Notes under the pieces: model-generated | Databases searched by the model: none | Told to the model about the DNA's origin: nothing | Seen by the model: the letters and a program-made list of their open reading frames with translations, nothing else | Assembly (NCBI GenBank): GCA_965249275.1 | Contig: CBDFLQ010000006.1 | Span: forward strand, 640,434 to 704,433 | DNA length: 64,000 nt | Reading direction: 5' to 3' | Source of the DNA: Dehalococcoidia bacterium | GTDB lineage: Bacteria > Chloroflexota > Dehalococcoidia > Plut-88900 | Shown here: in pieces, positions 6,574 through 9,946 of the stretch | How positions within the stretch are numbered: position 1 is the stretch's first letter | How the letters are laid out: every line of letters begins with the position of its first letter | Program-made: the position numbers and the translations under genes

Positions 6574-7389
6574 ATGACCGGTATATGGCCTGGCCCTACT
6601 CAGTGCACCGTCAACCTCGGCTTCGACATCGATGCCCAGAGCAACTGGATCGGCAGAGACCCGGCTTTGCGGGACAGGCCGGTAATGATGACCGCCGCCG
6701 ACTACGGCCCGAAAGTCGGCGTGCCGAGGATACTCAACCTGATGGATGAATACGGGCTCAAGGCTTCTTTCTTCATCCCCGGTTTCACTGCCGAGCAGTA
6801 CCCCGACCTCGTGAAGGAGATCCTGGCCAGGGGCCACGAGGTGGCGGGCCACGGCTACATGCACCGCCGGCCTGCAGAGCTAACACTGGAAGGGGAGATA
6901 GAAGACCTGGACCGGGGCCTCGAGGCACTGGAAAAGGCCGCAGGGCAAAAGATCACCGGCTACCGGGTCCCGGGCGGTGACGCCAGCAACCGCACAATGT
7001 CTCTCCTCGCAGAGCGGGGCATCATCTACGACTCCAGCCTGATGGACGACGACGCCCCTTATATGATCGAGACGACAAACGGCAACGTTCTTCAGATCCC
7101 CTTCCACTGGCTCCTCGACGACTTTCCCTACTACGCCTATGCTCCCGCGGTGGGCATGCGGGGCCCGGGCTGCAGTCCCGCCTCGGTGGCCCGGACATGG
7201 ATCGCCGAGTTCGACGGCCTCTACCAGGAGGGCCGCTGCATGATTCTGGTCATGCACCCGCAGGTCACAGGCCACCCCGGTCATCTGGCGGGCCTGGAAA
7301 CTACCATCAAGCACATGCTTACCAAGCCCAACGTCGCCATCACCACCGCCGGTGATATCGCCGAGCAGTGGCTGGCTAAGAACTCGTAG
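6574..7389 (+). CDS. Polysaccharide deacetylase (NodB-homology) family protein, copy 1 of 3
   Basis: 271 aa. NodB motifs are present (NLGFDIDA, HGYMH, FFIPG). Confidence 0.7.
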   Translation: MTGIWPGPTQCTVNLGFDIDAQSNWIGRDPALRDRPVMMTAADYGPKVGVPRILNLMDEYGLKASFFIPGFTAEQYPDLVKEILARGHEVAGHGYMHRRPAELTLEGEIEDLDRGLEALEKAAGQKITGYRVPGGDASNRTMSLLAERGIIYDSSLMDDDAPYMIETTNGNVLQIPFHWLLDDFPYYAYAPAVGMRGPGCSPASVARTWIAEFDGLYQEGRCMILVMHPQVTGHPGHLAGLETTIKHMLTKPNVAITTAGDIAEQWLAKNS

Positions 7390-8208
7390 ATGGCCGGTCT
7401 CTGGAAAGACGGAGTCCAATGCGCGGTCAACATCGGCTTCGACGTTGATGGCGTCAGCTCGTGGCTGGGGCGCGACGGTGATTTCGCCAACAGGCCGGTC
7501 GCCATGACAATGGGCGAATACGGGCCCAAGGTCGGCGTGCCCAGGATTCTGGACCTGTTGGAAGAATACGGAATTAAAGGCAGCTTCTTCGTCCCGGGCC
7601 ACACCGCCGAGAACCACCCGAACATCGTCCCGGACCTCCTTGAACGCGGCCACGAGGTCGCCCACCACGGTTACATCCACGAACGACCCGCCGCCTTGGA
7701 CGAATCCGAGGAGCGGCGAGCAATTGAGACAGGCCTCGAGATTCTTGAGCGGCAGGCAGGCTTCCGAATAAGAGGCTACCGCTCGCCGTCATGGGATATC
7801 AGCTTAAAAACTCTCGGTCTCTTGGTGGAATACGGCTTCTCATACGATTCCAGCCTCATGGACGACGACGCCCCTTACGTTCACGATGTGGACGGGTCTC
7901 GGTTGGTGGAGCTTCCCGTGCAATGGCACCTGGACGACTTCCCTTACTGGGGTTACGCCCCCGCCGCCGGAGTCCGAGGACCGCTCTCCAGCCCGGAGGC
8001 CGTGACCCGCACCTGGACCGCAGATTTCGACACCCTCTACCGGGAGGGCAGGTGCTACATTCTGACCCTTCACCCCCAAGTCTCGGGGCACCCGAGCAGA
8101 TTGTCGTGCCTGGAGCGTACCATTCAGCACATTATGTCCCACCCCAAGGTCGCATTCATGCGCTGCGACGAAATCGCCCAGCATTGGATCGAGCGGGGCC
8201 TTTCCTAG
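7390..8208 (+). CDS. Polysaccharide deacetylase family protein, copy 2 of 3
   Basis: 272 aa paralog of the gene at 6574. Its ATG start directly abuts the upstream stop. Confidence 0.7.
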   Translation: MAGLWKDGVQCAVNIGFDVDGVSSWLGRDGDFANRPVAMTMGEYGPKVGVPRILDLLEEYGIKGSFFVPGHTAENHPNIVPDLLERGHEVAHHGYIHERPAALDESEERRAIETGLEILERQAGFRIRGYRSPSWDISLKTLGLLVEYGFSYDSSLMDDDAPYVHDVDGSRLVELPVQWHLDDFPYWGYAPAAGVRGPLSSPEAVTRTWTADFDTLYREGRCYILTLHPQVSGHPSRLSCLERTIQHIMSHPKVAFMRCDEIAQHWIERGLS

Positions 8209-8238
8209 ACCCGATCCCCAAGCATCAGGAGGAACACC

Positions 8239-9048
8239 ATGGCAGGCATATGGCCCGGAGACACCCAGTGCGTAGTAACCCTGGGATTCGACATCGACGG
8301 CGTCAGTTCGTGGATTGGCAGAAACCCCGACTTCGCCAACAGGCCCGGCCTGCTTTCCATGGCCGAGTATGGGCCCAAGCGAGGCGTGCCTCGCATCCTG
8401 AAATTGCTGGACGACTACGATATCAAGGCCACTTTCTACATCCCAGGCTACGTCGCCGAGAACTATGAGGACATGGTGAGGGATATCGTGAAGCGGGGCC
8501 ACGAGGTCGGGCACCACGGCTACATGCACGAGGCACTGGGGACCATGCCGCTGGACCAGGAAACCGAAATCCTCGAAAGGGGCATGGCAATCCTCGAACG
8601 GATTACCGGCATGAAGACCCTCGGGTATAGGGCCCCGTTCTTCGACACCAGCCTGGACACCATACGTCTGCTGGCCGAGCACGGCTTCGCCTACGACACA
8701 AGCATGCACGACAGCGACGTCCCCTATATCCACGAAGTCAGCGGGAAGAAGCTGGTGGAAGTCCCGGTCAAGTGGGTGCTGGACGACTACGGGTACTTCG
8801 CATTCGTGCCCCAGGCGGGTATGAGATCGGCGATGCAGGACCCCCAGAGCGTCTACGAGACCTATGCCGCTGAGTTCGACGGCGCCTACAAGTACGGCAA
8901 CGTGATGACCATGACGCTGCACCCCCAGGCCAGCGGAAGGCCCGCGCGGCTCACGTCGGTAGAGCGGCTGATACAGTACGCCAAGTCCCACCCGAACGTG
9001 GAGTTCTGGCGAGGCATAGATATCGCAGAGTACTGGCTAGGGCGGTAA
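8239..9048 (+). CDS. Polysaccharide deacetylase family protein, copy 3 of 3
   Basis: 269 aa paralog with the same motif set (TLGFDIDG, HGYMH). Confidence 0.7.
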   Translation: MAGIWPGDTQCVVTLGFDIDGVSSWIGRNPDFANRPGLLSMAEYGPKRGVPRILKLLDDYDIKATFYIPGYVAENYEDMVRDIVKRGHEVGHHGYMHEALGTMPLDQETEILERGMAILERITGMKTLGYRAPFFDTSLDTIRLLAEHGFAYDTSMHDSDVPYIHEVSGKKLVEVPVKWVLDDYGYFAFVPQAGMRSAMQDPQSVYETYAAEFDGAYKYGNVMTMTLHPQASGRPARLTSVERLIQYAKSHPNVEFWRGIDIAEYWLGR

Positions 9049-9100
9049 ACAAGAGTCTTAGGGATCAGGGGCAGAATTAGATTATCCCCCCTCCTTTTCT

Positions 9101-9526
9101 CTAACTCCGTCTACTTCGCCTGGATGTTTCGCGATTGTCGTCCCTTGCAAAGTCGATGTCGGCCTGTGAGGGAATTCGAAAAGAGAATTTCGTATCGCCT
9201 TCTGGGTGTGTAATCGCAAAATCTCCAAGCCCTATGATGTCCATTCCGATAAGCACATCGTAGCCTCTCAAGTTGCCTAAAATTACGCGAAGGCCTTGAA
9301 ACTCCACCTCGCTGGGCAGCTTAACGTTGACGGCATAGGACGGCACATCCTCCGCAGATCCCTGTACGTGGTTGACCTTGCGCGTACCGATACTCCGTAG
9401 CACGCAAGCTTCGACCACTCTCTGAGAGATGACGCTGCCAGTGGCTCCTGTGTCCCACAGGGCGGTAAACTGAAACATCTGAGGTTGGGGGCCACTATCT
9501 CCCGGACTCCAGGAGTCGGAGAGCAT
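9101..9526 (-). CDS. Retropepsin-like (clan AA) aspartic protease
   Basis: 141 aa. Contains the D-T-G-A active-site motif (LWDTGATGSVIS) and a downstream hydrophobic-hydrophobic-G motif (VLIGMDII). The local region is low-GC. Confidence 0.6.
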   Translation of the reverse strand: MLSDSWSPGDSGPQPQMFQFTALWDTGATGSVISQRVVEACVLRSIGTRKVNHVQGSAEDVPSYAVNVKLPSEVEFQGLRVILGNLRGYDVLIGMDIIGLGDFAITHPEGDTKFSFRIPSQADIDFARDDNRETSRRSRRS

Positions 9527-9597
9527 ACAGACGGTTCTGAGCGACCGCGCCCGGTTTGGGGTAACGGTCGTAAAGCTGAACGAATGTACTTGGCGAG

Positions 9598-9858
9598 CTA
9601 TGGAGGAAACCCCGGTGAGTGAATGGTTACGGTGTAGTCGTCTTCACCTTCACTGACCCTTTGGACCATGAAAGTGCCGGGTTCGTGCTCTTTCCTGGTC
9701 TCCATGATTGCATCTAGCTCGGTGTCATATGTTCCGAGGACTTCGTGGTTCTTTAGTACGATGACCTTGCCGTCATACTTCTTCACGAAGTCGTCTTGGT
9801 TGTCTAGGTAATAGCGGAATTCGTTATTGACAGTTTCGATGTCCTTGGTGAGTGCCAT
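9598..9858 (-). CDS. Hypothetical small protein (86 aa) upstream of and co-oriented with the retropepsin-like gene
   Basis: Clean ORF with low-GC composition matching the downstream gene. Family not recognised. Confidence 0.4.
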   Translation of the reverse strand: MALTKDIETVNNEFRYYLDNQDDFVKKYDGKVIVLKNHEVLGTYDTELDAIMETRKEHEPGTFMVQRVSEGEDDYTVTIHSPGFPP

Positions 9859-9946
9859 GATATCGGCCTCCTGTTTGAATGGAGTATTGCACGCGGAAAA
9901 GTAAGATGCAAAGAATATGCTATATATTATAGCTCGTAACTATCAT

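Follow-up and report, generated by a model that had tools for sequence, protein, structure and literature searches.

Two minus-strand open reading frames occupy positions 9050-9946 of the window, by which is meant the whole stretch of 64,000 nucleotides analysed here, taken from contig CBDFLQ010000006.1 of a Dehalococcoidia bacterium. The first encodes a small acidic protein and the second a retropepsin-like aspartic protease, and together they form a two-gene cassette complete in itself, one of a large family that spreads horizontally. The genes and signals of the cassette are as follows.

9859..9946, minus: AT-rich upstream intergenic region, probable promoter region, with TATAAT inside the palindrome GCTATAATATATAGC (9919-9933)
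9867..9872, minus: Shine-Dalgarno AGGAGG, 8 nucleotides 5' of the ATG of the small gene, read from the sequence
9598..9858, minus: small partner gene, including its TAG stop (9600-9598); 86 residues, acidic, DUF5678-like, from the open reading frame and its homologues
9598..9601, minus: ATAG stop/start overlap, made of the small-gene TAG and a putative non-canonical ATA start, with the protease in the -1 frame
9101..9601, minus: protease in its probable complete form, about 166 codons from ATA 9601-9599, as indicated by family profile alignment and the coding extension
9101..9526, minus: retropepsin-like aspartic protease in its annotated form, 141 residues, ATG at 9526
9440..9457, minus: catalytic loop W-D-T-G-A-T, residues 24-29 in the 141-residue numbering, invariant in the alignment and aligned to the DTGA of Ddi1
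9239..9253, minus: L-I-G-M-D, the hydrophobic-hydrophobic-Gly motif of dimeric clan AA proteases, residues 92-96, aligned to the LIGLD of Ddi1
9104..9148, minus: protease C-terminal tail ARDDNRETSRRSRRS, from the alignment of homologues

The protease and its small partner

The 141-residue product passes both PF13975 (35.2 bits against a cut-off of 28.2) and PF13650 (27.2 bits against 24.3), the Pfam families that a first-pass annotation of this DNA had put forward for it; the two other profiles put forward there fared worse, since TIGR03698 (clan_AA_DTGF) gives 18.5 bits (17.9 for the 166-residue form), far under its cut-off of 57.35, and TIGR02281 (clan_AA_DTGA) gives no match. With a profile of 51 homologues, no solved structure matches better in sequence than yeast Ddi1 (E = 0.008), and the alignment places DTGA on DTGA and LIGMD on LIGLD. 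WDTGA is kept in 127 of 128 distinct homologues, as is LIGMD or a close variant of it; in the alignment of homologues WDTGA is invariant, and G94, M95 and D96 are invariant or nearly so. The catalytic aspartate has therefore withstood proper alignment. An AlphaFold2 model of the protease has a mean predicted local distance difference test score (pLDDT) of 84.7, and Foldseek matches it with a probability of 1.0 to APRc, to Ddi1 and to the proteases of equine infectious anaemia virus, xenotropic murine leukaemia virus-related virus and feline immunodeficiency virus. Pfam, the Ddi1 alignment and the fold thus agree with the original reading of a clan AA retropepsin-like protease from its D-T-G-A loop and downstream hydrophobic-hydrophobic-Gly motif. 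Neither a signal peptide nor a membrane segment is found in the protease. By its sequence and predicted fold, then, the second gene product is a cytoplasmic, single-domain retropepsin, presumably a homodimer in which two D-T-G-A loops build one active site. The intact WDTGA site goes together with purifying selection on the protease (dN/dS, the ratio of nonsynonymous to synonymous divergence, 0.08-0.33), and the small gene is likewise constrained (0.08-0.26).

Members of this subfamily share an N-terminal extension, xSFTT...L...C.VS.AW.P, and a C-terminal motif, FSFRIPSQADIDF. The tail that follows is strongly basic or carries a SEC-C zinc motif in most members and is weakly basic in the window protein; homologues divide into SEC-C (28), basic (39) and other (36) tails with a median net charge of +5, and PF02810 is recorded on many of them. 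The family comprises 883 clusters at 90% identity and at least 574 matches in species-representative genomes, and the earlier description of bacterial retropepsin-like proteins as rare does not survive these counts of hundreds to thousands of relatives. A survey from 2009 noted that little was known of prokaryotic single-domain clan AA peptidases (PMC2642776).

The small protein has an isoelectric point of 4.56 and a net charge of -9, and no hydrophobic segment, signal peptide or membrane segment is found in it, which bears out its initial description as a co-oriented, acidic 86-residue protein without a transmembrane segment. A single-sequence search returns 34 relatives and a profile search 4158 clusters at 90% identity; an exhaustive search yields 2067 clusters at 50% identity, nearly all of them free-standing proteins some 80 residues long. 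Against DUF5678 (PF18929) the protein of the window itself reaches 13.2 bits (E = 0.079), under the cut-off of 23.2. PF18929 is matched by 23 of 54 aligned relatives (best E = 2.3e-7), and precomputed matches to it also exist. The model (pLDDT 72) is ordered alpha-alpha-beta-beta-alpha-beta, a helix pair followed by a beta-hairpin and then by a further helix and strand, and a fold search of BFVD returns DUF5678 proteins of pandoraviruses and uncharacterised phage proteins with template-modelling scores of about 0.6 and a probability of 1.0 (the pandoravirus matches are A0A2U7UG46 and A0A2U7UD66). No match was found in the PDB by sequence or by fold, and no DNA-binding family or fold was detected. 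At the family level, sequence profiles and the modelled fold place the small protein in the DUF5678 fold family. Its last 14-16 residues form a conserved tail, Y-T-x-T-[FI]-H-S-[RP]-V-x-F/P, with a predicted pLDDT below 50; conservation together with such low pLDDT is commonly seen in segments that become ordered only when bound to a partner. The tail loosely resembles the N-terminal xFTTx motif of the protease.

The protease probably starts about 25 codons 5' of its annotated ATG, giving a product of about 166 residues, as judged from frame and homology. Both the reading frame and family homology extend 25 codons 5' of ATG 9526 to ATA 9601-9599, the family profile aligns from its position 3, 19 codons upstream of that ATG, and the in-frame peptide I-ARQVHSFSFTTVTPNRARSLRTVC stands before MLSDSW. 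The protease frame contains none of the codons ATG, GTG and TTG between the in-frame stop at 9646-9644 and ATG 9526, and the only near-cognate codon in the extension is ATA 9601-9599, which overlaps the small-gene TAG as ATAG. A strong Shine-Dalgarno sequence precedes the small gene only, and ATG 9526 has no comparable site. Across the family the junctions between the two genes fall into the following classes.

ATG within 0-30 nucleotides: 66 loci
No canonical start: 27 loci
ATGA overlap: 23 loci
TTG (several as TTGA overlaps): 22 loci
TAATG: 14 loci
GTG (several as GTGA overlaps): 13 loci

Stop/start overlaps or gaps of at most 30 nucleotides therefore dominate, as in a coupled arrangement. 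In 26 of the 27 loci lacking a canonical start, the protease is read in the -1 frame and TAG or TAA is overlapped by ATA (21) or GTA (5), in the place of the ATGA, TTGA or GTGA of other loci; L014, L016-L019, L021, L023, L024, L030, L036, L037, L039, L045 and L046 are among these overlaps. The base before the stop is accordingly A in 21 of the 26 and G in 5, against 16.5% A at four-fold degenerate sites elsewhere in the same genes, an excess with a binomial P of about 1e-12 when left uncorrected for relatedness. In this class the extension behaves as coding sequence, with no stops, with the conserved motifs kept and with pN<pS in 98% of pairs. We infer that an ATGA overlap became ATAA or ATAG, and that the protease would now be weakly re-initiated at AUA or GUA after termination of its partner. 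A non-AUG start that overlaps a stop accounts for public calls of the protease that vary in length (173, 141, 125, 119 and 79 residues) or are missing.

Pairing, spread and local history

Three surveys bear on whether the two genes belong together. From the protease side, 185,579 species-representative genomes were scanned and the best 80 of at least 574 relatives were inspected, as were the best 80 of 200 relatives in IMG/VR; from the other side, 80 metagenomic loci were found via the small gene. A small-protein homologue lies directly upstream of the protease on the same strand at 80 of the 80 best genome loci, which span Chloroflexota, Bacteroidota, Gamma- and Betaproteobacteria, Nitrospirota, Verrucomicrobiota, Gemmatimonadota and Planctomycetota and include a candidate phyla radiation (CPR) bacterium, a Clostridia metagenome-assembled genome (MAG) and an archaeal MAG. 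The partner is present at 79 of the 80 best IMG/VR loci, so that a protease with no detectable partner was met once among 160. The first-pass annotation had let its proposal stand or fall with the conservation of the small gene beside homologous proteases, and this survey of genomic context finds the partner gene to be real and the pairing kept in genomes and viral contigs alike. Loci found via the small gene are asymmetric in the other direction: 64 carry the protease, 7 are cut short by a contig end, and 9 (of the 73 with enough contig) have no protease, or just a decayed remnant of one, beside the small gene. Among the species-representative genomes, a split protease lies beside an intact small gene in L015, L019 and L080. 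The protease, in short, is essentially never found without its partner, and the partner is sometimes found alone.

The pair occurs in phages, prophages and viral contigs, in keeping with the phage link first suspected. Leptospira LE1-type phage LbrZ_5399 (KF114879.1; L274 3639-4432) is a cultured phage that carries it, convergent with the portal gene; there the protease frame of 183 residues meets the small gene in a TAATG overlap and is unannotated in GenBank. Elsewhere the contexts include housekeeping-gene surroundings and sites after phage replication genes, and a cI-like neighbour recurs at 4 loci. In one prophage-like element (L093-L100; P0095) the SEC-C-tailed version of the pair stands between an HTH_3 gene and an S24 (CI/LexA-like) repressor gene. 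Downstream in the same element comes either a gene of the HEPN_Cthe2314 type or one for type I restriction (HSDR_N), surroundings that resemble a cluster for immunity or defence. The pair keeps no constant third gene beside it: even the largest cluster of neighbours is limited to 12 of 205 distinct loci, a recurrence that stems from lineage synteny. In some genomes there are several copies, or pairs in tandem, and the GC content of the pair is drawn toward about 50% irrespective of that of the host. Searches for the proteins in existing collections returned little: PADLOC-DB v2 gave no match for either at E <= 1, neither is known to PHROGs, where the small protein matched only noise, a tblastn search of PLSDB plasmids gave no match, and nothing was found in the literature on a pair of a retropepsin and a DUF5678-like protein.

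Several loci extend the picture in their own ways. L024 (6920-7610) and L025 hold, about 3 kb away from the main pair, another that is highly divergent and of the same architecture, encoded on the minus strand of the locus as an 88-residue protein and a 161-residue protease with VDTGA; this second protease falls just under the PF13975 cut-off and has a weak TIGR03698 match, and the finding suggests a wider superfamily of such pairs. Two tandem small-protein homologues lie upstream of one protease in L047 (3347-3929), and the representative library contains a tandem-duplicated small protein of 181 residues (P0246). Loci L054 (a MAG labelled 'uncultured archaeon') and L057 (a MAG labelled 'Clostridia bacterium') have identical junction DNA and nearly identical upstream sequence, which points either to transfer in the very recent past or to one of the two MAGs being wrongly binned or labelled.

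At the site in the window, base composition sets the pair apart. GC content in 300-nucleotide windows is 0.46-0.49 at the pair and 0.57-0.64 on either side; the pair with its intergenic spacers has 50.6%, against 59.6% for the window and 59.8-60.3% for the flanks, and GC at third codon positions is 0.59-0.63 in the pair and 0.73-0.83 in adjoining genes. The low-GC islet is thus real by both measures, and the figure of about 63% first given for the flanks was slightly high. On one side lie three PF01522 deacetylase genes and on the other an SDR gene and two CoA-transferase III genes, identities that were taken from collinear relatives about 90% identical; the placement between a polysaccharide-deacetylase array and CoA-transferase genes holds, with the SDR gene also on the CoA-transferase side. 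The deacetylase genes (6574-9048, plus strand) are tandem paralogues of 269-272 residues, kept as a trio in related genomes and mutually only about 64-70% identical in DNA. There is no tRNA within 25 kb of the pair, no Rfam match at the locus and no convincing flanking direct or inverted repeat of the kind an insertion might leave as a scar; a strict scan for sigma-70 promoters and terminators at consensus stringency returned nothing. The palindrome GCTATAATATATAGC was considered as an autoregulatory operator and is not supported as one, being found in the close clade only and imperfect in L013, with no palindrome common to the family.

The pair lies at the same site in every related Dehalococcoidia contig examined (the best related record is the MAG OZ244800.1, with a protease 96% identical), so the insertion is not recent. 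The horizontal acquisition at first proposed is therefore to be understood at the level of the family, which is mobile and present in phages and prophages, and a recent insertion here is not supported. The alleles have moved more freely than the site. In the comparison with L014 and L015, identity is 87-96% for the flanks, 84-86% for the small gene and 65-74% for the protease, and synonymous divergence (dS) of the protease runs from 1.2 to saturated with dN/dS of about 0.16, against a dS of 0.16-0.46 in the flanks. High dS at so low a dN/dS points to replacement by an old allele, and the same values led us to reject positive selection as the cause of the protease divergence. Against L013 and L004 the relation is reversed, the pair being younger than its flanks (dS 0.02-0.11 against 0.2-0.64), which suggests the recent spread of one allele. 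The cassette is long resident between the SDR and deacetylase genes, and its alleles are exchanged by recombination independently of the flanks. The interval 9101-9858, compared with L014 and L015, is a local hotspot of allele exchange.

Proposed restraint of the protease and rival readings

What such a pair might do is suggested by its organization. The reading that we favour, tentatively and at somewhat less than an even chance, is that the small protein restrains the protease and that release of the protease is the output, in the manner of a toxin-antitoxin or abortive-infection-like module. The small protein would be made in excess from its strong ribosome-binding site and the protease in small amounts, through re-initiation coupled to termination where stop and start overlap, which in this genome would mean a weak AUA codon; the small protein would then bind the protease and hold it inactive. 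More speculatively, the conserved tail Y-T-x-T-[FI]-H-S-[RP]-V could be laid into the substrate cleft, or could instead enter the terminal beta-sheet of the dimer interface, mimicking a terminal strand and blocking dimerisation. Were the partner lost, titrated or degraded, for example on phage infection or loss of the element, the protease would be freed to cleave cellular or phage proteins, and its basic or SEC-C tail may direct it to nucleic acid or ribosomes.

This reading rests on gene order, overlapping stop and start, the asymmetry of orphans and the scattered contexts. Family-wide, the small protein also diverges faster than the protease core (mean identity 41% against 48%) and the two divergences are correlated (r = 0.49); a faster first protein and correlated divergence are typical of antitoxin/toxin pairs. 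The toxin-antitoxin-like character proposed by the first-pass annotation is thus supported in these respects. There is also reason for caution. Without a DNA-binding domain in the small protein or a conserved upstream operator, autoregulation of the classical type II kind is not evident; PADLOC and PHROGs know neither protein, and the lack of a PLSDB match is unusual for classical addiction modules. Within the Dehalococcoidia clade the small protein is more conserved than the protease, and the cassette is stably inherited at one chromosomal site, both of which would also fit a housekeeping heteromeric enzyme. In locus L069 (3428-4375, in the Dehalococcoidia MAG OZ220748.1) the stop is replaced by Gln (…HSRVMSL-Q-MPGPFAFT…) to give an in-frame fusion, whether natural or an assembly error, so that a covalently linked pair is apparently tolerated. 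The case for AUA initiation, finally, is drawn from comparative patterns. Each of these points weighs against restraint and release as the function of the pair.

Several of them are what would be expected of the main rival, which we regard as unlikely but to be taken seriously: a protease that is obligately heteromeric and serves a physiological purpose without toxicity. On this view the protease would need the small protein as a cofactor, chaperone or substrate adaptor, in effect a prodomain supplied in trans to assist folding, dimerisation or targeting, and host or phage would gain regulated proteolysis from the pair. Subunits of fixed stoichiometry would account equally well for the strict co-occurrence and the translational coupling, and the stability of the locus and purifying selection in Dehalococcoidia, the high conservation of the small protein with its tail included, the L069 fusion (with the same reservation) and the lack of an evident DNA-binding domain or operator are all congenial to it. 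It is harder to reconcile with a patchy distribution across phyla among unrelated neighbours and in phage or prophage settings, with multiple and tandem copies and alleles swapped independently of the flanks, with small genes that occur solo where proteases essentially never do, and with a protease that appears to be translated deliberately weakly, from ATA or GTA.

An improbable alternative makes the small protein the dedicated substrate or precursor of the protease, cleavage of its tail freeing or activating a product or acting as a switch, for instance between lysis and lysogeny near CI-like repressors. The conserved tail is predicted to be unstructured, as a cleavage site would be, and the prophage family with the pair between HTH_3 and S24 repressor genes, together with the 4 loci with a cI-like neighbour, would suit such a switch; most loci, however, lie outside prophage immunity regions, the small protein has a folded, conserved body in place of the leader and variable core of peptide precursors, and solo small genes persist without a protease. 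Least probable is a Gag-Pro-like recoding, in which the start-less loci would make the protease only as a fusion, by -1 frameshifting or, if the two frames coincide, by read-through of the stop, followed by self-cleavage: the -1 frame at 26 of the 27 start-less loci, a -1 frame open over the last 15 small-gene codons in the window with a GGGG run there, and the L069 fusion (if it is no assembly error) are in its favour. Against it, all three relative frames are used across the family with an ordinary ATG, GTG or TTG at most loci, the frame is open for only 5-7 codons before the stop in L021, L023 and L024 with no slippery X-XXY-YYZ heptamer, the selection for A or G as the base preceding the stop is what a start codon of the form NTA would call for, and no reverse transcriptase, integrase or other retroelement gene recurs beside the pair.

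Returning to restraint of the protease by its partner, it is possible, though on balance doubtful, that a cytoplasmic retropepsin effector, a DUF5678 restraint and a dose set by re-initiation (in some lineages at AUA or GUA on the stop of the partner) together constitute a new class of toxin-antitoxin or abortive-infection system. What we propose, from sequence comparison, is that the effector class of such a two-gene, conflict-type module would be one not described before. If the toxin-antitoxin or defence role is true, aspartic proteases would join the effectors of bacterial conflict systems, and DUF5678, which ranges from phages to pandoraviruses, would gain a first function as a protease inhibitor or antitoxin. 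The pair would in that case also be a two-protein system for the natural inhibition of a retropepsin dimer, with a bearing on inhibitor design against viral proteases. Apart from its function, the family is a large one of cytoplasmic retropepsins, counted in no fewer than 574 species-level genomes and in 200 viral contigs, with some 2000 clusters of partners at 50% identity, and its class of ATAG/ATAA overlaps offers a clean comparative case for non-AUG re-initiation, one that explains truncated or missed gene calls. Cultured carriers of the pair exist in Tenacibaculum adriaticum DSM 18961 (L067), Aquimarina sp. 2201CG1-2-11 (L088) and the Leptospira LE1-type phages (L274), and they permit direct tests.

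Comparison with known systems

To our knowledge, bacterial retropepsins have been known only as a handful of envelope or secreted enzymes. The protease described here has in common with PF13975 (gag-asp_proteas) and PF13650 (Asp_protease_2) the scores above cut-off, the D-T-G-A loop, the hydrophobic-hydrophobic-Gly motif and the retropepsin fold, and it differs from them in its own N-terminal extension, the FSFRIPSQADIDF motif, the basic or SEC-C tail and the obligate upstream partner; the definitions of these families are silent on function and partners. Rickettsia APRc (5c9f) and Pseudomonas RloA2 (9g59) have the same fold and are among the Foldseek matches. APRc and the Rlo enzymes are described as retropepsin-type (PMC4140852, PMC11957051), with APRc active on the cell surface (PMC8649778) and the Rlo enzymes either secreted or located in the periplasm (PMC11957051; title of 9g59). 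The present protease, in contrast, shows neither a signal peptide nor a membrane segment, has a small partner encoded beside it and is found on mobile elements.

The eukaryotic protein Ddi1 is a component of the ubiquitin-proteasome system, equipped with ubiquitin-like and UBA domains. Its retroviral-protease-like domain matches the present protease in sequence and fold with the catalytic motifs aligned, whereas its ubiquitin-like and UBA parts have no equivalent here. The likeness of the small protein to DUF5678 is that of a family, since relatives match PF18929 and the modelled fold matches while the window's own protein is under the cut-off; the PF18929 model covers 49 positions, a core of beta-hairpin and helix, and leaves the N-terminal helices and the conserved tail of the small protein outside. 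With retroviral gag-pro the cassette shares a protease frame that overlaps the upstream frame in -1 and the protease fold itself, and it departs from gag-pro in having no retroelement genes, three frames in use and no slippery site, so that re-initiation is favoured over frameshifting.

The closest comparison is with type II toxin-antitoxin and abortive-infection systems. No DNA-binding antitoxin domain is found here and PADLOC has no match, and we know of no described toxin-antitoxin or PADLOC system with an aspartic protease as its effector. The likeness is drawn from the genes: as in those systems, they are small and co-oriented with overlapping stop and start and the presumed antidote first, and they share with them a scattered, mobile distribution, multiple copies, orphan antidotes and a first gene that evolves the faster of the two.

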